In this document: one piece after another, positions 19,527 to 40,421 of the stretch
How positions within the stretch are numbered: the stretch's first letter is position 1
Layout of the letters: each line of letters opens with the position of its first letter
NCBI GenBank assembly: GCA_023269855.1
Contig: JAGDWP010000056.1
Coordinates: 1-41,498, forward strand
Source of the DNA: Nitrososphaerales archaeon
Lineage (GTDB): Archaea; Thermoproteota; Nitrososphaeria_A; Caldarchaeales; Wolframiiraptoraceae
Direction of reading: 5' to 3'
DNA: 41,498 bases
Made by a program: the position numbers and the translations under genes
The notes under the pieces: generated by a model
What the model was told of the DNA's origin: nothing
Databases searched by the model: none
What the model saw: only the letters and a program-made list of their open reading frames with translations

Positions 19527-21824
19527 ATGGAAGTTATTAGAAGAATACAGTTAATCATCTTGACGACGTTAGTGGTAGCAATGATTCTAATCGGAGTAGC
19601 ATATTCTCAAGAAGAGGGAGTAAGGATAAGATTCTACATGGATACAGGTTTGGGTGGACCTAGAATAATCGACACATGCGGTGGAATGGTACCTGTAGGA
19701 GAAAACCTGACCTGCACTATTAGACCTGTAATCTATTTTGATAATGATACGAGGATTGTCTTTAAAGGATGGTATAGGGATGGAAAACTAATCACTAGTG
19801 ATGTAACCATTATGGTGACGGCTGAAGAAGGCCAATATCTACAAGAATACATTGCAAAATACAACGTCGAATATCTATTAGAACTTGAATTAGGTTATCA
19901 AACTATCGATGAGTGGAAGCCTAGACATAGTTCCTTCACATTCAGAGTAGAAGGAACATGGAATCTTCGTGAAGGCGTCAGAAAACTTTTCCTAAAATGG
20001 ATTGGCGACATTGAAGGAAACAATCCATACATCTATATAGAGAAGATTACTAAACCCTTGAAAGTGAAAGCAGTCTGGACAACACAATACTATGTGAATG
20101 TAATATCTGAACATCCTTTATCATTGGAAAGCGGATGGTTTAATGAAACTCAAACAATTAACGTAGAACCTGTAACCCCAGTCATTTATGAAAATAATGG
20201 AGAATCAAAGATTATACTAGAAAAATATGCTGTAGATTATTTGTTAGTGGATCAACAAGATTTCCAAGTGTATGAAAACTCTTTTAGATTAACAGTTAAT
20301 TCGCCTTTAACGATAAAAGCTTTTTGGGTAAAACTCCACCATGTAGTTCTCGAATCAGACCATGTTAGACCCATACTGCTAGATGATTGGATACGGGACG
20401 GTGATAGACTAATTTTCAATCAGTTAGAGAAAGAGATTACTTGGAATAATGGTACAAAAATAGTTTTCGATAGATGGGAGAACGGTATAACTTCATCAAA
20501 TGTAAACATAAATGTTGAAATAAGTGGTCCTCTCCAAGCTCGAGCAATATGGAGAGTCTACTATCTAGTTTCTGTAGAATCATCTGATCCCAGTATCGCT
20601 GTATATGCTAATAGTTTAGGATGGATTGAGAAGGGAAGCTACTTGCTCATCAATGCAACACCAATTGAAAGAAATCTAGGGAAAGGCGTTAAAGCATTGT
20701 TCAAAGAGTGGAGCGGTAGTATTATAAGCTCAAACCCTATAATCGAAATCTCAAGCTTAGATAAACCTGTAATAGTTAAAGCTGTATGGGTTAAGAAGTA
20801 TCTCGTCACTATTGATGCTTTAGAACAAGCTGGAATACCGAAAGAATTATGGATAGAGGAAGAAGAAGACAAGGAGATAATAGCACCGCTTCACGTCATA
20901 ATAGATAATTCAACAAGAATAGTTTTTAATAAATGGTTTGGATGCACTATGGTCAAAGACAATATTTGTACATTAAGCAATGTAAACACGCCCTTAACTA
21001 TTGGTGCAAGATATATCATGGAGAAAAAGATAACAATAGAGGCCATATCTTTAAACGATGAAGTAATAGAAAATGTATCATTCACCCTTAAACATGAGTC
21101 AGGTGACATAAAGAAGCTATTTTCAAAGGATACCTCATGGATGAAGATAGGGCTCTGGACTGTTGAGGATGCTACTTGGAAAGGATACGATGTAACTTCT
21201 ACTACAGAGTTCCGAATATCAGAAGACTCCAATACACCTGTAAGACTATTAGTGAAGATTTTCAAGATATCATTCAAGATACAAGATTATCTAGGTTTTC
21301 CAGTCAAAGATGCAAAGATAATTATCAGAAAAAACGATGGTGAAATAATATATGAAGGTAGGACAGATGAAAGCGGGTCCCTGGATAATGCAGGACCTCT
21401 GCCTCCAATAGACTTAACTGCATACATACTCTACATGGATCATCAAATAGTTAAGCAAATAAATCTAAAGACGTCAAACCCTGTCTACATAACGATACCA
21501 TTCTCACAGACATCAATCCAAATCTTTATACTCATATTCGTTGCCTCCGGGTCACTCATAACTTATGCTTTTATTAGAAGGCTTCGTAAACCTAAAGAGA
21601 TTCCGCTAGAAGTCCCCATACCATTGGAGCCGCCGCCAACAATAACTACAGAAGAAGCTATTGAAGATGTAGAAGTTAAGAAGGCACCGATAGTTACTCT
21701 CGAAGACGTTATCAAGAAACTAAAGATGAGCGGAGAAAACCCTGAGAAAGTATTAGGAGAATTAGTTGAAGGCTTCCAAGGTAAGAAAGAAGATAAAACG
21801 AAAAAGAAACCTAATCGCGAGTAG
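19527..21824 (+). CDS. Large type-I membrane-anchored surface protein with about six internal beta-rich repeats
   Basis: An N-terminal hydrophobic signal/anchor spans aa 8-26. A C-terminal TM 'IQIFILIFVASGSLITYAFI' (approx. nt 21513-21575) is followed by an RRLRK stop-transfer and a Pro/Glu/Lys-rich tail. The ectodomain carries seven N-x-S/T sequons. A segment before the TM, 'ISFKIQDYLGFPVKDAKIIIRKNDGEIIYEGRTDESGSL', is carboxypeptidase-regulatory-like. Confidence 0.75.
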   Translation: MEVIRRIQLIILTTLVVAMILIGVAYSQEEGVRIRFYMDTGLGGPRIIDTCGGMVPVGENLTCTIRPVIYFDNDTRIVFKGWYRDGKLITSDVTIMVTAEEGQYLQEYIAKYNVEYLLELELGYQTIDEWKPRHSSFTFRVEGTWNLREGVRKLFLKWIGDIEGNNPYIYIEKITKPLKVKAVWTTQYYVNVISEHPLSLESGWFNETQTINVEPVTPVIYENNGESKIILEKYAVDYLLVDQQDFQVYENSFRLTVNSPLTIKAFWVKLHHVVLESDHVRPILLDDWIRDGDRLIFNQLEKEITWNNGTKIVFDRWENGITSSNVNINVEISGPLQARAIWRVYYLVSVESSDPSIAVYANSLGWIEKGSYLLINATPIERNLGKGVKALFKEWSGSIISSNPIIEISSLDKPVIVKAVWVKKYLVTIDALEQAGIPKELWIEEEEDKEIIAPLHVIIDNSTRIVFNKWFGCTMVKDNICTLSNVNTPLTIGARYIMEKKITIEAISLNDEVIENVSFTLKHESGDIKKLFSKDTSWMKIGLWTVEDATWKGYDVTSTTEFRISEDSNTPVRLLVKIFKISFKIQDYLGFPVKDAKIIIRKNDGEIIYEGRTDESGSLDNAGPLPPIDLTAYILYMDHQIVKQINLKTSNPVYITIPFSQTSIQIFILIFVASGSLITYAFIRRLRKPKEIPLEVPIPLEPPPTITTEEAIEDVEVKKAPIVTLEDVIKKLKMSGENPEKVLGELVEGFQGKKEDKTKKKPNRE
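19614..21026 (+). repeat. About six tandem protein-level repeats of approx. 78 aa (approx. 234 nt) inside the surface protein
   Basis: A recurring pattern is present: [IL][VF]Fx[KG]W ... NP/N.. ... P[LV].[VI]KA[VF]W..(Y/H).V.[VIL]. Examples are 'RIVFKGW', 'KLFLKWIGDIEGNNPYIYIEKITKPLKVKAVWTTQYYVNV', 'KIVFDRWENG...GPLQARAIWRVYYLVSV', 'ALFKEWSGSIISSNPIIEISSLDKPVIVKAVWVKKYLVTI', 'RIVFNKWFG...TPLTIGARY'. The repeats are divergent at the DNA level. Confidence 0.6.
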
Positions 21825-34308: not shown

Positions 34309-36498
34309 TTACTCTTCTTCTACGAAATCCGATATTTTCGGAATACTTAGAGGCAGACCCTTCCTCTTTCTTATCTCTTCTATCACTTTGTCTCTTATCG
34401 ATGATGGTACTGGCTTCCAGGCATAGAATTCTGTGGCCCAGAATGCTTTACCCATCGTTGCACCACGCATTACTTCACTTAAATCAAAAGTCTCAGCTGC
34501 AGGGATTTCTCCAGAGACAACCGTGATGTATTCTTGCTGACTAACTTCTAAGACTCTTCCTCTCTTAGATGTTATGACGCTTGTCACTGCGCCCATAAGG
34601 TCTGGTGGAACTTTAGCTTCAATCTTCAAGACGGGTTCAAGGAGTATTGGGTTAGCGCTTAGTATGCTGGCATACATGCTTCTCCATGTTGCTGGAGCTA
34701 TCTGTGCGTATCCTCTGTGGACAGGGTCTTCGTGGAGTTCAACGTTTACTAGTATTGCTTTTATTCCACGCATGTTCTCTGCTGCTAGTGGACCTTCCTG
34801 CACTACTCTCTGGAAACCTCCAATAATCATCATCTTACTTTCCTGTAGATACTGTGCTCCCTTCGTCATATCTACGAGAATGTTTCCTCTAGGATCGATT
34901 GCCCACACACCTCTCGCCATATCTGCATCCCATCCATGATCCCTAAGCACCTTGGCTATCTGTTTCCTATCCATTTCATCGAATAATTCTCCTCTTCTAA
35001 TAAGCTCGATAATTTCTTCTTCAAGAGGCTCAACTTGAATGTATATCTTATTATGTCTATTCGGAGATTTCCCTTCAAAGACCTTACCCTTCTGCGTAAT
35101 AGTTTCTCGGTAAAGTATTATGGGCTTACTAGCTACTACTTCGAGCCCGGCTTTAGATATCCATGTCAAGGCTATCTCTAAGTGTAGAGTGCCCATACCG
35201 CTTATCAGATACTCTCCAGTTTCAGGTCTAACAGTAGTAACAAGCGTGGGATCTTCGATGCTGAGCTTATTCAAGAAATCTACCAACTTTGGGAGATCTC
35301 TACTATGCTTTGGTTCAACAGAGATGGTAACAACAGGCTCTGAAACATATTTCAATGATTCGAAAGGTATCGTCTCAACAGTTGCTAAAGTGTCTCCAGC
35401 TCTTGCCTCCTCTATTCCAAGAAGTGCTGGAATATTCCCAGCTGGTAGAGTGCCTACAATCTCCCTATTCGGACCCATATAGACTGTTACCTGCTGAATT
35501 CTCTTCTTAATGTTCCTTCCAACTATAAGTAGGTAGTCTCCCTCATTTACTGTTCCACTGAATAGTCTACCTGTAGCTACTACTCCAGCTTGAGGGTCAA
35601 CTTTAACATCTGTTACCACCATTACTACTGGTCCTTTTTCATCACAGTTCAACATTGCTTGTCCAACTTCGTCTTCTATGTCTCCTTTCCAGATCTTTGG
35701 TATCCTATATTTCTGAGCAACATGAGGTGGCGGGTGATGGGTTATAACCATCTCGAGTATGGCTTCGTGGAGTGGAGTGTTCTCTCTAAGCCATTCAATA
35801 TCATTGTTAGTGAAAGCTTTTAGAACATCTGAGAATTTTATACCTTTCTTTTGAGCTTGCTGGAGAGTGAAACCCCACCTATCTTTTGCACTACCTATAG
35901 CTACATTACCTGCTTGGAAGCTGACCTTCCACTTCTCTCTATATTCTGGTTCAGCATACATTTCTATCAATCTGTTAACTTCTAAAACGATTCTTCCCAA
36001 TGTTTCCTGTATTTTTTCAGGTGTAAGCCTAAGCTCTTTAATAAGTCTATCAATCTTGTTAATGTATAAGACGGGTTTAACTCTTTCTTGAACAGCTTGC
36101 CTTATAACTGTTTCAGTCTGCGTCATTACTCCCTCTACTGCATCTACTACTACTACTGCTCCGTCTATCGCTCTCAACGCTCTAGTAACTCTACCACTAA
36201 AATCTACGTGCCCCGGAGTATCTATTAAATTAATTACATAAGGCTTCCCATCCATTTCATAGTATAGTGAAATGTTAGCAGCCTTAATCGTCATCTGCCT
36301 TTGCTGTTCTTCTTCTAAGTAGTCTAACGCTAATGCTTTCCCAGCTAACGTAGGTGACAATAACCCAGCAGCTGCAAGTAAGCTATCCGTAGTAGTAGTT
36401 TTTCCATGATCAACATGCGCTATTATCCCTATATTCCTTATCTGGTCTTTCTGGTGGAGTATGTCTAAGACTTCTGAGATCTTCTTAACTCGAGGCAT
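34309..36498 (-). CDS. fusA: Translation elongation factor aEF-2
   Basis: Contains 'IGIIAHVDHGKTT', 'DTPGHVDF', 'NKIDR', and the diphthamide-loop region 'HEDPVHRG'. Length is 729 aa. Confidence 0.97.
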   Translation of the reverse strand: MPRVKKISEVLDILHQKDQIRNIGIIAHVDHGKTTTTDSLLAAAGLLSPTLAGKALALDYLEEEQQRQMTIKAANISLYYEMDGKPYVINLIDTPGHVDFSGRVTRALRAIDGAVVVVDAVEGVMTQTETVIRQAVQERVKPVLYINKIDRLIKELRLTPEKIQETLGRIVLEVNRLIEMYAEPEYREKWKVSFQAGNVAIGSAKDRWGFTLQQAQKKGIKFSDVLKAFTNNDIEWLRENTPLHEAILEMVITHHPPPHVAQKYRIPKIWKGDIEDEVGQAMLNCDEKGPVVMVVTDVKVDPQAGVVATGRLFSGTVNEGDYLLIVGRNIKKRIQQVTVYMGPNREIVGTLPAGNIPALLGIEEARAGDTLATVETIPFESLKYVSEPVVTISVEPKHSRDLPKLVDFLNKLSIEDPTLVTTVRPETGEYLISGMGTLHLEIALTWISKAGLEVVASKPIILYRETITQKGKVFEGKSPNRHNKIYIQVEPLEEEIIELIRRGELFDEMDRKQIAKVLRDHGWDADMARGVWAIDPRGNILVDMTKGAQYLQESKMMIIGGFQRVVQEGPLAAENMRGIKAILVNVELHEDPVHRGYAQIAPATWRSMYASILSANPILLEPVLKIEAKVPPDLMGAVTSVITSKRGRVLEVSQQEYITVVSGEIPAAETFDLSEVMRGATMGKAFWATEFYAWKPVPSSIRDKVIEEIRKRKGLPLSIPKISDFVEEE

Positions 36499-36675
36499 TC
36501 CCTCTCTTCTCCTTCAATATCAATTCTCCCGATCTATTTAACGCTACTGATCCCCGAACATCGAGATAACTAAGCCAACTCCCAAAGACCAGTTTTTGTA
36601 AAGAGATTAAAATCAACTATATAATGTAATATTCTACTGCTGGTGTGAGAAAGCTTGATTGGTTTAGTTATCAAT

Positions 36676-37023
36676 TTATACTTCATGGTCGGGTTTTCTA
36701 GTTAAACTGACATAATCCATTCTAGGTGGTACGAAGATATCTAAGATTAGTACTTCCTCAATTGCCTCAAAGCCATGTTCTTCATTAGCGGGTATACAGT
36801 ATGAGTCGCCTTCAGAAACTTCTATCTTGGCATCTTTTGTTGCAAAAACTCCTCTTCCCGAGATAACTAACCCATACTGGGATTGAGGATGAGCATGCAT
36901 TGGAACTATCCCACCTGCTTCAATCTTAAACAACATTAAGAGACATCTTTCATCATAACTTAGCGGAGTAGCTGAAATTTTCTCTCGAAGATTAATCCAG
37001 CTACCTTTTCTCCAGACCTTCAT
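36676..37023 (-). CDS. Cupin-domain protein
   Basis: 115 aa. Contains cupin motif 1-like 'GGIVPMHAHPQSQYGLVISG' and motif 2-like 'GDSYCIPANEEHGFEA'. Confidence 0.65.
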   Translation of the reverse strand: MKVWRKGSWINLREKISATPLSYDERCLLMLFKIEAGGIVPMHAHPQSQYGLVISGRGVFATKDAKIEVSEGDSYCIPANEEHGFEAIEEVLILDIFVPPRMDYVSLTRKPDHEV

Positions 37024-37177
37024 GTTGAAGCTGAATCATTACCTTTCTAATTAACTTTCCCACGTCTAACTAGAACCTATCTCATCAAACTCATAATCAT
37101 GGAATCACACTGTTGGGTACCCGTCCACTTTCAGATAGGTCTCCAAGAAATATATTCCACCAATTCAATATTAATTT

Positions 37178-37702
37178 TTGAGTAACTTGAACGAGATCGA
37201 CTTTGACACAACTCTTGCATGCAGGTTCTATCATGAACCGATAGAGTTTAAAGAATTATCACCATATTTAGCTAGGAATGGCTGGATTGTTATGGAAAGA
37301 AAATTAGAGAAAGACGGAGTTGTCATTGAATATACTGCAAAGAGCATAGACGGATTAGAAATCCTTTTTTCACTAAAGAATAAAAGAGCCTTCCCAGATT
37401 TTAAAACTATTGAAAACCTTTTTAAGACATTACTAAATTATTTTTGGTATATCGACGTATATCACTGTTTCAGAAACTTAGATGTAGTTACCGTCGCTGA
37501 AAAGATTGGCTTAGATCTTGGAACGTCCAAAATAAGAAGAATAAAACTTGGTAGAATAGAAGTTTCAATCGAAGGATACAAGTTGACTGGTAAACTTATA
37601 GTTAGCTACAGAGTCGGTTTGAGAGAAGTGGATGATGTGAAGAAGATTTATTCAAAGCTTCTATACAAAATCTTAACTGTTAAAGGTGTGGAAAATGAGT
37701 GA
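37178..37702 (+). CDS. Hypothetical protein, first gene of the crenactin operon (positional arcadin candidate)
   Basis: 174 aa with a TTG start. The start is about 26 nt downstream of the TATA-like AAATATATT (37148-37156), which suggests a leaderless mRNA. Its stop (37700-37702) overlaps the crenactin ATG (ATGAGTGA). I recognise no family motif. The internal ATG (MERKLEK...) is an alternative start. Confidence 0.55.
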   Translation: MSNLNEIDFDTTLACRFYHEPIEFKELSPYLARNGWIVMERKLEKDGVVIEYTAKSIDGLEILFSLKNKRAFPDFKTIENLFKTLLNYFWYIDVYHCFRNLDVVTVAEKIGLDLGTSKIRRIKLGRIEVSIEGYKLTGKLIVSYRVGLREVDDVKKIYSKLLYKILTVKGVENE

Positions 37703-38963
37703 AGAATACAAGAGGTCCCATGTGTTTGGTATGGATTACGGTACAGGCGACTTCAAGTATGGGCCGATAACAATAGGTGAAGTACCCGAAGTAATTGAGA
37801 GCAGAGGATACTTCATTGAGAGAAGCTCTATTATGTCCAGGATTATGGGTGTTGATAGAGAAGTCGTAGTCGGTAAAGATCTACCCCTCTTCCTAGAATC
37901 GAGAGAGGATGTTGCTGAGAGATTGGTATATCCTATGAAGAACGGGATAGTAGAGAGAAACGATGTTAGAGCATGGCAAGTAATAAAAGAATTAACTAAC
38001 TATGCTCTACAAAGTTTTACACTGGACGACCCAGACTTTAAAGGATTCTACGTTGTCGCAAGTCTAGCAGTCGTTGCTCCCAGATACATGTATGAGCAGT
38101 TATTTGATATTTTTGGAGAATTGAATGCTGAGAAGATGCTTGTTAGAGCTGCAACGATAATTCCTCAGCCTTTAGCTGTAGCTATTGCGCATAAGACTCC
38201 AACATGCGTAGTTGTCGAGTCTGGTCACGGGAACACTCAGGTATGCCCAATCTCAATGTACCCTATAAGAAATGCAGTTGTAGCTCTAAATCGAGGTGGA
38301 AGTGCTGCAAATACTTTAACATCTGAGATTCTTAAAGATGCTGGATATGGAGATCTAGCCAAAGAAGAGAAGCTTGTTAGAAGAGTTAAAGAGCAGATTG
38401 GTCTCCTACCCAAGAGACTTGAAGACTCGATAGACTATGCTAGGAGGAATCCTGAAAAAGTAAAGACTGAGATAAGGATCGAGGGGACTAGGATAAAGAT
38501 AGATCTAGGAGAAGAAAGCTGGACGAGGTTTCTAATAGGTGAATATGCTTTTAATCCTGGGCACGAGATATTCCAAAGCTACTTTAAGAGAGGTATGCCT
38601 AGACCAGGCGATGTCAAAATCGGAGATACATACTTCTATGGAATGACAGATCTCTCAGAAGCTATAATTGAAGCAGTTGAGAAATGCTCTGTAGAACTCC
38701 AACCTCACCTCTACTCTCGGATTATTCTGTCTGGAGGAAACTTTAATTGGAATGCTCCTAAGGGTTTAGAAGGAATAGCTGTTACTTCGGATGAAAAAAT
38801 TAGGTATATGTTGAAAGAGAAGGGTATAGAAAATGTTCAAGCAATCGTTGCTAGAGAACCTACATACTCTGTCTGGAGAGGCTGCATAGTATATGGTTAT
38901 GCTGTCCCATACGATTTTAAGTGGAAATGGGAGAGAATGGAGGGGTGGCTTAACTATGCGTAG
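37695..38963 (+). CDS. cren-1: Crenactin (archaeal actin homologue)
   Basis: An actin/HSP70 fold with crenactin-like blocks along its whole length: 'FGMDYGTGDFKYGPIT', 'VYPMKNGIV', 'WQVIKELTNYAL', 'IIPQPLAVAIA', 'VVVESGHGNTQVCPI', 'ALNRGGSAANT', 'WTRFLIGEYAFNP', 'IILSGGNFNW', 'PTYSVWRGCIVYGYA'. The ATG at 37695 is preferred over the GTG at 37686. Confidence 0.88.
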   Translation: MSEEYKRSHVFGMDYGTGDFKYGPITIGEVPEVIESRGYFIERSSIMSRIMGVDREVVVGKDLPLFLESREDVAERLVYPMKNGIVERNDVRAWQVIKELTNYALQSFTLDDPDFKGFYVVASLAVVAPRYMYEQLFDIFGELNAEKMLVRAATIIPQPLAVAIAHKTPTCVVVESGHGNTQVCPISMYPIRNAVVALNRGGSAANTLTSEILKDAGYGDLAKEEKLVRRVKEQIGLLPKRLEDSIDYARRNPEKVKTEIRIEGTRIKIDLGEESWTRFLIGEYAFNPGHEIFQSYFKRGMPRPGDVKIGDTYFYGMTDLSEAIIEAVEKCSVELQPHLYSRIILSGGNFNWNAPKGLEGIAVTSDEKIRYMLKEKGIENVQAIVAREPTYSVWRGCIVYGYAVPYDFKWKWERMEGWLNYA

Positions 38964-39633
38964 GAGACCGACGCCAGAAGACATAATCTCAACCCTCTTG
39001 ATGGAAGAAGGATTCTACGAGGTTTCAAGAAATACTGAATCAACATGGTTGGATAACCAGATAATTCTATCCGACGGTAAACTACAGATAGTTGTAAATA
39101 TTCTATCCGAAGACTCATGTAATTCAAAGTCTATCATTCATGAAGCCTTGATTGAGACACAGAAACTCCAAAGCAAATACGATGGAGTAATCATTGCAGT
39201 ACCTAGAAGATACTCGAAAATTGTTGATGAAAGCTTACTACTCAAGTATGGTATCGGTCTGATAATATACGACATGATGGGCGCGGAGGAAGTCCTTCCT
39301 CCTAAGATAAACATTAATAGGAAAGAGAAGATACAAAACACTCAATATAGTATTGAGAAAAGCTCAATCACAGAGATTGCTATTCTCAAGTCTGAGATAG
39401 CCAAGATAATGAGAATGCTTGAAGAGATGGAGGCTAGATTAGATAGATTAGAGAAAGAACAGAGAATACTGGCAAGCAAGATAATCGAATTAGAAAGAAC
39501 AAATTCTTCTAAAGATACTGAGCAAGAATTGGTTAAAGTAACAATGAGCAAGCTTCATTCTAACAGTAATGATAACCTCCCAAGCTATCTCAAGGATAAT
39601 CCATGGCTAGAAATTCTTTCAAAAAGAGTGTAG
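38956..39633 (+). CDS. Arcadin-2-like protein (globular N-domain, coiled coil, short C-terminal tail); assignment by position and architecture only
   Basis: The ATG at 38956 overlaps the crenactin stop by 8 nt. 225 aa. A heptad-rich segment 'ITEIAILKSEIAKIMRMLEEMEARLDRLEKEQRILASKIIELER' spans approx. nt 39370-39504. A polar linker and then an amphipathic C-terminus 'LPSYLKDNPWLEILSKRV' follow. Confidence 0.6.
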   Translation: MRRRPTPEDIISTLLMEEGFYEVSRNTESTWLDNQIILSDGKLQIVVNILSEDSCNSKSIIHEALIETQKLQSKYDGVIIAVPRRYSKIVDESLLLKYGIGLIIYDMMGAEEVLPPKININRKEKIQNTQYSIEKSSITEIAILKSEIAKIMRMLEEMEARLDRLEKEQRILASKIIELERTNSSKDTEQELVKVTMSKLHSNSNDNLPSYLKDNPWLEILSKRV

Positions 39634-40421
39634 ATAAATTGAAGATAATTGTCCTAGGTTCAGGGTCAATTATTCCGACGAAAAATAGATTCTCAACATC
39701 CTTCTTCATAGAATATTCCGGAGGAAGGATACTTCTAGACATAGGTCCGGGAACAATAGAGAAATTAAGACGGCTAGATATTCGACCCGATTCTATTGAT
39801 AGACTGTTTATAACTCATTTTCACCTAGATCATACCTTGGATCTACCGGTGTTGATAAAAGTTAGGATGTTTAATGAGTTTGGAGGTCCTAATCCCAGTC
39901 CTCGAACACTTAACGTTTACGGTCCTACAGGTCTTAAAAACTTTATAGATAAATTAATTTCTCATGAAGGAGTATACAGTTATCTTTCTGAGATGATGCG
40001 TAACCTAGATTACTTGAAAATCCATGAAGTAGGAGAAGGACGGGTAGAGGAATTAGAGAATCTCCGGGTTTATTCCGTATCTGTCGAGCATTATAATGGG
40101 GTTGCATATAGATTTGAACTAGATAATGTTACCATAGCTTACTCTGGAGATACAGTATATGATGAAAGAATGTTGAAGCTAGCAGAAGGTGTAGATATCC
40201 TTATTCATGAATGTTCATTCCCCAAAGAATCGATATTAGGTAAGCATACTTCAGATGAAGATCTAATAAATATAGGTGAAAGAACGAAACCGAAGATACT
40301 CATAGTGTCCCACTTATACCCGGTATGGGAAGGGAGAGAGAAGCAGCTTGAAGATAAACTCAGGAAAGAGATTGGATGCAAAGTCTACGTTGTAAAAGAC
40401 ATGGATACTTTATACGTCTGA
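39603..40421 (+). CDS. MBL-fold metallo-hydrolase (RNase Z/ElaC-like short form)
   Basis: Contains 'IIVLGSGS', the metal motif 'ITHFHLDHTLDLP', 'YSGDT', and 'HECSF'. The ATG at 39603 gives a 31-nt overlap with the upstream gene. The in-frame TTG at 39639 would give none. Confidence 0.8.
   Translation: MARNSFKKSVDKLKIIVLGSGSIIPTKNRFSTSFFIEYSGGRILLDIGPGTIEKLRRLDIRPDSIDRLFITHFHLDHTLDLPVLIKVRMFNEFGGPNPSPRTLNVYGPTGLKNFIDKLISHEGVYSYLSEMMRNLDYLKIHEVGEGRVEELENLRVYSVSVEHYNGVAYRFELDNVTIAYSGDTVYDERMLKLAEGVDILIHECSFPKESILGKHTSDEDLINIGERTKPKILIVSHLYPVWEGREKQLEDKLRKEIGCKVYVVKDMDTLYV

Follow-up and report, generated by a model that had tools for sequence, protein, structure and literature searches.

Which proteins accompany an archaeal actin whose gene overlaps its neighbours on both sides? 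This question is raised by a stretch of 41,498 nucleotides (contig JAGDWP010000056.1 of assembly GCA_023269855.1; hereafter the window), in which an actin-like gene is packed between an upstream and a downstream gene on the same strand. A preliminary description, made from the sequence letters, had taken the middle gene for crenactin and its neighbours for partners without an assignable family, either divergent arcadins or new regulators of crenactin. Few prokaryotic proteins are closer relatives of eukaryotic F-actin than crenactin; arcadin-2 alone among its regulators has a known mechanism, and it is unclear what arcadin-1, -3 and -4 do (Makarova et al. 2024). We read the locus, with a probability of about 0.6, as a compact variant of the arcade cluster, made up of crenactin, a divergent arcadin-2 and a lineage-restricted upstream protein, in a hot-spring member of the Wolframiiraptoraceae (Caldarchaeales, formerly Aigarchaeota) resembling Ca. 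Geocrenenecus. The features on which the analysis turns are the following (BRE, B recognition element):

37140..37156, + strand: BRE/TATA-like element TCTCCAAGAAATATATT, with the A/T core AAATATAT at 37148-37155
37187..37702 (37178 if the first TTG is used), + strand: upstream gene, 171 aa (174 aa from 37178)
37684..37688, + strand: Shine-Dalgarno-like AGGTG within the upstream gene, 7-11 nt 5' of the crenactin ATG
37695..38963, + strand: crenactin gene, 422 aa, ATG start, TAG stop at 38961-38963
38939..38948, + strand: Shine-Dalgarno-like GGAGGGGTGG within the crenactin gene, 8-17 nt 5' of the arcadin-2 ATG
38956..39633, + strand: divergent arcadin-2 gene, 225 aa, ATG start
39580..39627, + strand: codons of the arcadin-2 C-terminal motif PSYLKDNPWLEILSKR, a predicted helix binding the crenactin groove
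39603..40421, + strand: gene of the metallo-beta-lactamase fold (RNase Z-like), possibly co-transcribed, not a known arcade component

Crenactin and its downstream partner

By its sequence, the middle gene is crenactin, as the preliminary description had proposed. In a phmmer search of the PDB sequences, its product matched P. calidifontis crenactin (4cj7) with an E value of 1.2e-114 and 386.6 bits over residues 2-418 (5-427 of the target), and eukaryotic actins followed at about 1e-8 and no more than 35 bits. With the NCBIfam crenactin model NF053560 it reached 573.6 bits, positions 1-421 of the 422 in the model being covered; MamK (44.6 bits) and syringactin (21 bits) followed, and Pfam Actin matched as well. 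More than 560 homologues (564) were found, and among the best 120 of these several had been named crenactin by the Joint Genome Institute. The nucleotide-binding motifs align with those of 4cj7 (MDYGTG/VDFGTS for the phosphate-1 DxG, ESGHGNTQ/EGGHGNIQ for the phosphate-2 GxG and ILSGGNF/ILSGGAF for the adenosine GG). Since the N-terminus MSEEYKRSHVFG is conserved among relatives and aligns with the P. calidifontis protein from residue 5, ATG 37695 is the correct start.

The arrangement itself could suggest something else, as ParMRC-type systems typically come as three-gene actin-like cassettes with small adaptors: a partition ATPase of the plasmid or virus type, or an MreB- or FtsA-like protein, with its adaptor genes. 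However, the distance between the crenactin and MamK scores and the full-length match to 4cj7 rule out an identity as ParM, MreB, FtsA or MamK, and no grouping with the first three of these, which the preliminary description had named as the outcome that would speak against crenactin, was found. In addition, the locus is flanked by housekeeping genes of the chromosome, which are conserved throughout the archaeal family, and the partner gene carries the arcadin-2 motif described below. We regard this explanation as having practically no chance of being right.

Both neighbours overlap the crenactin gene by 8 nt, according to the open reading frame (ORF) listing and direct reading: the upstream gene in ATGAGTGA (37695-37702, with its TGA at 37700-37702), and the 225-aa gene in ATGCGTAG (38956-38963). 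These overlaps had been pointed out before; they are real in the sequence, and stop/start overlaps recur at these junctions in relatives.

To have a reference for the arcadins, we reconstructed P. calidifontis crenactin from its alignment in the PDB search and scanned metagenome contigs with the resulting sequence. This yielded a reference arcade cluster (L029; loci are given by such numbers where needed), whose crenactin is 100% identical to the query and which encodes arcadin-1 (119 aa, PDB 5ly5 at an E value of 1e-58), arcadin-2 (203 aa, 300.3 bits with NF053561) and arcadin-4 (1035 bits with NF053563). The 225-aa protein of the window matched NF053561 (Rkd2/arcadin-2) with an E value of 2.4e-5, its residues 34-224 aligning with positions 26-195 of the 196 in the model. 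The same model detected 14 of the 23 database homologues of the 225-aa protein and the corresponding Brockarchaeota protein (E value 6.7e-11). When the 225-aa family was compared with 17 Pyrobaculum arcadin-2 sequences in hhalign, the probability was 96% (E value 3.9e-9, 173 columns, 34-224 to 26-202). Judged by these sequence comparisons, the downstream protein is a divergent arcadin-2.

The predicted architecture agrees in its parts with that of arcadin-2, which has a conserved core, a non-conserved linker and a small conserved C-terminal helix (Izoré et al. 2016, PMC5173319). The AlphaFold2 model (predicted local distance difference test, pLDDT, 77.5) comprises an alpha/beta domain at residues 1-114 (38956-39297), a long helix at 120-197 (coiled coil, 39313-39546), a disordered linker of low model confidence at 187-205 and a short C-terminal helix at 216-224. 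Invariant residues of the family cluster in the core and at residues 209-222. The C-terminus PSYLKDNPWLEILSKR matches ...GENEWVKILRSKR of P. calidifontis, whose C-terminus is RGGIGENEWVKILRSKR, and the motif itself reads DNPWLEILSKR in the window and ENEWVKILRSKR in P. calidifontis. Its core, (D/E/N)N(P/E)W(V/L/I)x(I/L/Y)L, was present in all 66 arcadin-2 homologues compared, from at least six lineages, P. calidifontis included. In that organism, a 17-residue C-terminal peptide of arcadin-2 binds a hydrophobic groove of crenactin with a dissociation constant of about 31 nM, the Trp being central, and depolymerises crenactin filaments (Izoré et al. 2016, PMC5173319). Because the motif is conserved and its action was established by the Pyrobaculum experiments, we infer that the arcadin-2 of the window uses the same groove-binding mechanism.

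By homology, the crenactin of the window would polymerise into ATP-dependent double filaments that resemble F-actin. The C-terminal Trp helix of arcadin-2 would insert into the crenactin groove, in competition with the next subunit's D-loop, so that monomers would be sequestered or filaments depolymerised. Thymosin beta-4/WH2-type sequesterers and the ParR-ParM system likewise set an amphipathic helix in the IA/IIA groove against the D-loop; they have no sequence relationship to arcadin-2, and the likeness is convergent according to Izoré et al. (PMC5173319). The coiled coil of arcadin-2 would probably dimerise it.

The N-terminal domain was closest to folds of the restriction endonuclease type. 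The best Foldseek match in the PDB was XisH (2okf, E value 8.7e-4) with a template modelling (TM) score of 0.58 when normalised by target length, and further matches were XisH-family 2inb (E value 1.2e-3), PaqCI, BamHI, XPF and tRNA-splicing endonuclease. A catalytic set of acidic and lysine residues was not found in the domain: only Gly/Ala positions are conserved at 85% or more across lineages, and there is no ExK. The model thus describes a nuclease-shaped domain that is probably not an enzyme. It may serve in localisation, which is the role we consider probable in the proposed mechanism, or in nucleic-acid binding, and together with the coiled coil it might anchor sequestered crenactin on DNA or at the division site. 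We found no link between arcadin-2 and the restriction endonuclease-like fold in the literature, our coverage of which is incomplete.

The protein encoded upstream of crenactin

A crenactin-based genome scan gave 28 loci, all from Caldarchaeales and Brockarchaeota and none from Thermoproteales. Relative to the crenactin of the window, identities were 85-88% in Ca. Geocrenenecus, 69-78% in Ca. Wolframiiraptor, Benthortus and other Caldarchaeales, and 64% in Brockarchaeota. According to tblastn, the order of genes in the family is elongation factor 2 (EF-2), a cupin gene (in some), the upstream gene, crenactin, the 225-aa gene, the metallo-beta-lactamase (MBL)-fold gene and dCTP deaminase. The upstream gene lies directly 5' of crenactin in every Wolframiiraptoraceae locus that includes this region (19/19). 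Likewise, the order from the upstream gene to the MBL-fold gene is kept in all 16 loci spanning the four genes, and three further loci, cut short by the end of the contig, follow it with the genes that they have. More than 20 related genomes show the three-gene arrangement. Conservation of the flanking ORFs beside crenactin, which the preliminary description had wanted compared among related genomes, is thereby established for this family. The overlap between the stop of the upstream gene and the crenactin start measures 4 nt in 15 loci, and L006 has the same 8 nt as the window; in three loci (L005, L010 and L024) the two genes are 0-5 nt apart without overlap. The overlap between the crenactin stop and the downstream start is 8 or 11 nt in relatives and 4 nt in Brockarchaeota.

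An alignment of close relatives shows that TTG 37187 is kept in them and TTG 37178 is not, so that the upstream protein is more likely to have 171 aa than the 174 aa assigned to it at first. On sequence comparison, crenactin evolves far more slowly than either partner protein: a crenactin identity of 88% goes with 47% in the upstream and 65% in the downstream protein, and at about 71% crenactin identity these values fall to about 27% and 43%. Over the range of 70-88% crenactin identity, the upstream protein is 24-49% identical. It nevertheless retains the motifs C15, W90-Y91-x-D93-x-Y95 and S143-Y144-R145, and its invariant or near-invariant residues are C15, G35, E61, W90, Y91, D93, Y95, R99, S143 and R145.

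In contrast to the downstream protein, the upstream one has no curated family, so that of the two partners described as family-less only this one remains so. The best Pfam match had an E value of 0.19 and the best match among PDB sequences 0.45, which is chance level, and NCBIfam gave none. When 1.84 billion representatives were searched in full with HMMER, relatives came from 14 clusters only; a word-indexed search found 3 proteins. Using an alignment built from the homologues of the representative search, AlphaFold2 predicted the structure with a pLDDT of 87.1 and a predicted TM score of 0.84, as two beta-alpha-beta-beta-beta-alpha units, and an internal-duplication test detected no sequence repeat within the family. 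Foldseek matches to this model were weak, with TM scores of at most 0.42: TBP, M. barkeri SerRS, AdoMetDC (0.38-0.42 for the latter two) and pairs of ACT domains, as well as 9k3b_U, which had an E value of 3e-4 but a TM score of only 0.27. The fold search of viral proteins in BFVD gave low-TM, unnamed matches only. Since the position and motifs are conserved and the model is confident, the upstream gene is a real gene.

Outside the family, Brockarchaeota have a same-strand ORF of 173-185 aa about 110 nt 5' of crenactin, which hhalign aligns from end to end with the upstream family (probability 68%, E value 5e-5) and which is probably a remote homologue, as far as profile comparison can tell.

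Several results count against the reading of the locus as a compact arcade with a crenactin-associated upstream protein. For this organism the evidence consists of sequence, and the operon and the interactions are predicted. The 574 bits of crenactin fall slightly short of the 630-bit NCBIfam equivalog cut-off, and the 225-aa protein has 24.1 bits against the 290 bits demanded by NF053561. The latter cut-off is an annotation threshold tuned to Thermoproteales and not a biological feature; as it is not reached, we file the protein as a divergent homologue and not as an NCBI 'equivalog'. Arcadin-1, -3 and -4 were not found within the 41-kb window. The upstream ORFs of L050 (Bathyarchaeia) and L052 (other Thermoproteota) are collinear with the family and not significantly similar to it (hhalign 2-3%), and several crenactin loci (L051, L053-L056) have, in place of the upstream gene, arcadin-2, an unrelated gene or no same-strand gene at all. 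It is conserved position alone that ties the upstream protein to crenactin, and because the flanking EF-2, dCTP deaminase and MBL-fold genes are equally syntenic within the family, adjacency is weak evidence of function.

This last point also feeds an alternative that deserves serious, if clearly lesser, weight: the upstream protein may be non-cytoskeletal, a binder of nucleic acids or small molecules or a local transcription regulator that merely shares the promoter of crenactin. The cupin gene is as syntenic as the other flanking genes, many crenactin loci of other lineages manage without the upstream gene, and the weak fold matches are TBP-like, AdoMetDC, ACT and CYTH sandwiches, folds whose ligands are nucleic acids or small molecules. 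These matches are, however, too weak for assigning a function. Moreover, the stop/start overlap and the Shine-Dalgarno-like site in the last codons of the upstream gene are kept across genera, and the probable Brockarchaeota homologue occupies the same slot although all other flanking genes differ there. A different possibility is that the protein is an extremely diverged orthologue of arcadin-1 that kept its position and gained about 55 residues. The gene does sit in the arcadin-1 slot, immediately 5' of crenactin and on the same strand; the family evolves so fast that a loss of detectable similarity across the distance to Thermoproteales is conceivable; and the Culexarchaeia paper states that Caldarchaeales encode arcadin-1, together with crenactin and arcadin-2. 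Yet the profile comparison gave an hhalign probability of 0.1%, phmmer against the PDB did not retrieve 5ly5 at E values up to 10, and 5ly5, whose crystal structure lacks residues 32-71, was not among the best 50 Foldseek matches. The lengths differ too (171-185 aa versus 113-119 aa), and the arcadin-1 hidden Markov model had no match in the window or in any non-Pyrobaculum locus. We consider this orthology improbable. The earlier suggestion that the partners might be divergent arcadins thus applies to the downstream gene and not to the upstream one.

We therefore prefer to see the upstream protein as a fast-evolving alpha/beta protein which, to go by its position, would most likely be a crenactin-associated factor such as an adaptor or modulator, filling the slot that arcadin-1 has in Thermoproteales without a detectable relation to it. 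A functional association with crenactin has, in our estimate, a little better than an even chance; that the protein binds or regulates crenactin directly is doubtful. Equally tentative is the wider idea that it founds an undescribed family of crenactin-binding proteins, which would replace arcadin-1 in archaea of the TACK group (Thaumarchaeota, Aigarchaeota, Crenarchaeota and Korarchaeota) other than Thermoproteales and would act through a conserved, exposed beta-sheet patch formed by Y91-D93-Y95 and S143-R145. Such a family would comprise the Wolframiiraptoraceae proteins, the probable Brockarchaeota relatives and perhaps those of Bathyarchaeia and other Thermoproteota. If this idea is true, the set of archaeal actin regulators is wider than the four arcadins and varies between lineages; if the protein is unrelated to crenactin, the locus is an ordinary arcade of an already known type. 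The Wolframiiraptoraceae include the cultivated Wolframiiraptor gerlachensis, which makes binding and localisation experiments feasible.

Predicted expression signals of the gene cluster

That the three genes are read from a single, probably leaderless mRNA, as had been suggested, is plausible in view of a conserved BRE/TATA-like element and internal Shine-Dalgarno-like sites. In an alignment of the window with six relatives, the element TCTCCAAGAAATATAT (37140-37155) is nearly invariant and its flanks are variable. It lies 22-39 nt 5' of the two candidate TTG starts. The usual spacing between TATA element and transcription start in archaea places the 5' end of the transcript at about 37178. 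From the position of the element and this spacing, the transcript would be leaderless or have a leader of no more than about 10 nt. A single promoter would thus give rise to a (near-)leaderless polycistronic mRNA, the first gene of which would start at a TTG at or near the 5' end.

AGGTG-type sites are complementary to the 3' end of archaeal 16S rRNA. At the position of AGGTG before crenactin, nearly all Wolframiiraptoraceae relatives have GAGGTG or GGGGTGG, and GGAGGGGTGG before arcadin-2 is kept in all relatives with overlapping genes. Both, lying within the 3' ends of the preceding genes, are likely to act as Shine-Dalgarno sites from which crenactin and arcadin-2 would be translated, and the overlapping stop and start codons would couple the synthesis of these two proteins. 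An archaeal operon whose first gene is leaderless and whose internal genes are led by Shine-Dalgarno sites would be expected to show this pattern.

Some of these sites also belong to conserved protein sequence. GGAGGGGTGG encodes the C-terminal E-G-W of crenactin, which is present in P. calidifontis crenactin too, and the M-E-G-W codons (ATGGAGGGGTGG, 38937-38948) form the Shine-Dalgarno-like site of arcadin-2, so that one sequence has two roles. In Wolframiiraptor (L009-L017), the C-terminal G-W codons of the upstream protein (GGGGTGG) form that of crenactin. Part of the protein conservation at such sites may reflect constraint at the nucleotide level.

In most lineages, the upstream protein ends in a short basic amphipathic segment (GIFDKLLGWIR, GIFKGLKNVLKFGKK; hydrophobic moment 0.5-1.0), which we noted in L007, L009-L017, L018-L022, L027, L050 and L052. 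We considered such tails (LLGWIR, GIFKGLKNVLKF; Wolframiiraptor, Brockarchaeota, Bathyarchaeia) as membrane-targeting helices and downgraded this idea, the window protein and its genus having no tail. Conservation of the G-W in Wolframiiraptor can be explained by nucleotide-level constraint, because its codons coincide with the Shine-Dalgarno-like GGGGTGG.

Starts other than ATG are common in the operon: its first gene has a conserved TTG, and several Geocrenenecus relatives start crenactin with TTG or GTG, whereas the window has ATG. The crenactin starts concerned are those of L001-L003, L005, L006, L017 and L024.

Comparison with known arcades and neighbouring genes

The arcade of P. calidifontis (Ettema et al. 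2011; Izoré et al. 2016) consists of arcadin-1, crenactin, arcadin-2, arcadin-3 and arcadin-4. The locus of the window resembles it in having crenactin followed by arcadin-2 on the same strand, a small gene immediately 5' of crenactin, and an arcadin-2 with globular core, coiled coil, linker and C-terminal helix bearing the DN(P/E)W..IL motif. Unlike in Pyrobaculum, where the genes are 7-26 nt apart, those of the window overlap by 8 nt; an MBL-fold gene takes the 3' place of arcadin-3 and of arcadin-4, the SMC/Rad50-like protein; and the upstream gene is not detectably related to arcadin-1 in sequence or predicted fold. The GC content is 38.7% compared with 57% in P. calidifontis, which bears out the earlier remark that the lineage is much more AT-rich.

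Other TACK lineages share the adjacency of crenactin and arcadin-2, which we found, together with the C-terminal motif, in every lineage and context sampled, including Brockarchaeota, Bathyarchaeia, Geothermarchaeota and other Thermoproteota. Brockarchaeota also share the same-strand upstream ORF; most of the other lineages lack the upstream gene or have none that can be recognised.

That Aigarchaeota have crenactin has been known since about 2011-2015 (PMC4571572), and with the Culexarchaeia paper the crenactin/arcadin-2 part of the locus is already known for Caldarchaeales. The Wolframiiraptoraceae and Calditenuaceae papers do not mention crenactin or cell shape. In the literature that we found, three points are undescribed: that in this family the slot 5' of crenactin holds a different, uncharacterised protein family; that the invariant core in all lineages sampled is the crenactin/arcadin-2 pair with its C-terminal motif, other partners varying; and that the core of arcadin-2 is, in its predicted model, nuclease-shaped. 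The partners other than arcadin-2 are replaceable, and the upstream protein is a concrete, well-folded candidate for a new one.

The preliminary description spoke of a compact module of three genes. The trio is indeed packed and conserved, but the unit may hold four genes, since the MBL-fold gene, if ATG 39603 is used, shares 31 nt with the 3' end of the 225-aa gene, and since it is syntenic across Wolframiiraptoraceae. It is not found beside crenactin in Brockarchaeota and other lineages. Its product matches Pfam Lactamase_B_2 and Lactamase_B, and NCBIfam RNase_Z with 132 bits, under the 293-bit cut-off. The ATG sits in the Pro-Trp codons of the conserved C-terminal helix of arcadin-2.

Some loci of other lineages differ in layout. 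Arcadin-2 is 5' and not 3' of crenactin, with the same C-terminal motif, in L051 (3299-3964, an Aigarchaeota metagenome-assembled genome) and L054 (2288-2965, one labelled Halobacteria). A gene of about 90 aa, cysteine-rich and zinc-ribbon-like (CPED...CxxCP), lies directly 3' of arcadin-2 in L050 (5900-6166), L053 (5001-5276) and L056 (4970-5263), that is, in Bathyarchaeia, Geothermarchaeota and one further lineage; neither the window nor the Wolframiiraptoraceae loci have it, and it may be another arcade-associated gene. The metagenomic contig L055 (4361-7344) encodes crenactin (447 aa), arcadin-2, an 80-aa helical protein and a protein with an SMC_N domain, a full arcade order like that of Pyrobaculum outside Thermoproteales.

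The surroundings examined in the window are housekeeping genes: EF-2, an amino-acid ABC transporter, a P-loop protein of the Mrp/NBP35 type, MoaC and MoeA, and further aIF2-gamma, NDK and a TYW1-like radical SAM protein. Genes for FtsZ and Cdv proteins were not found in the window. Between the genes of a PIN-domain protein and an ARMT1-like phosphatase lies a 765-aa ORF (19527-21824, + strand) with no Pfam match at E values up to 0.001. The EF-2 gene (34309-37023) is on the strand opposite to the crenactin operon in the window and in Geocrenenecus, with the cupin gene between them, whereas in Wolframiiraptor (L009-L017) it is on the strand of the operon and the cupin gene is missing. These gene orders point to a local inversion or insertion at the 5' border of the operon.

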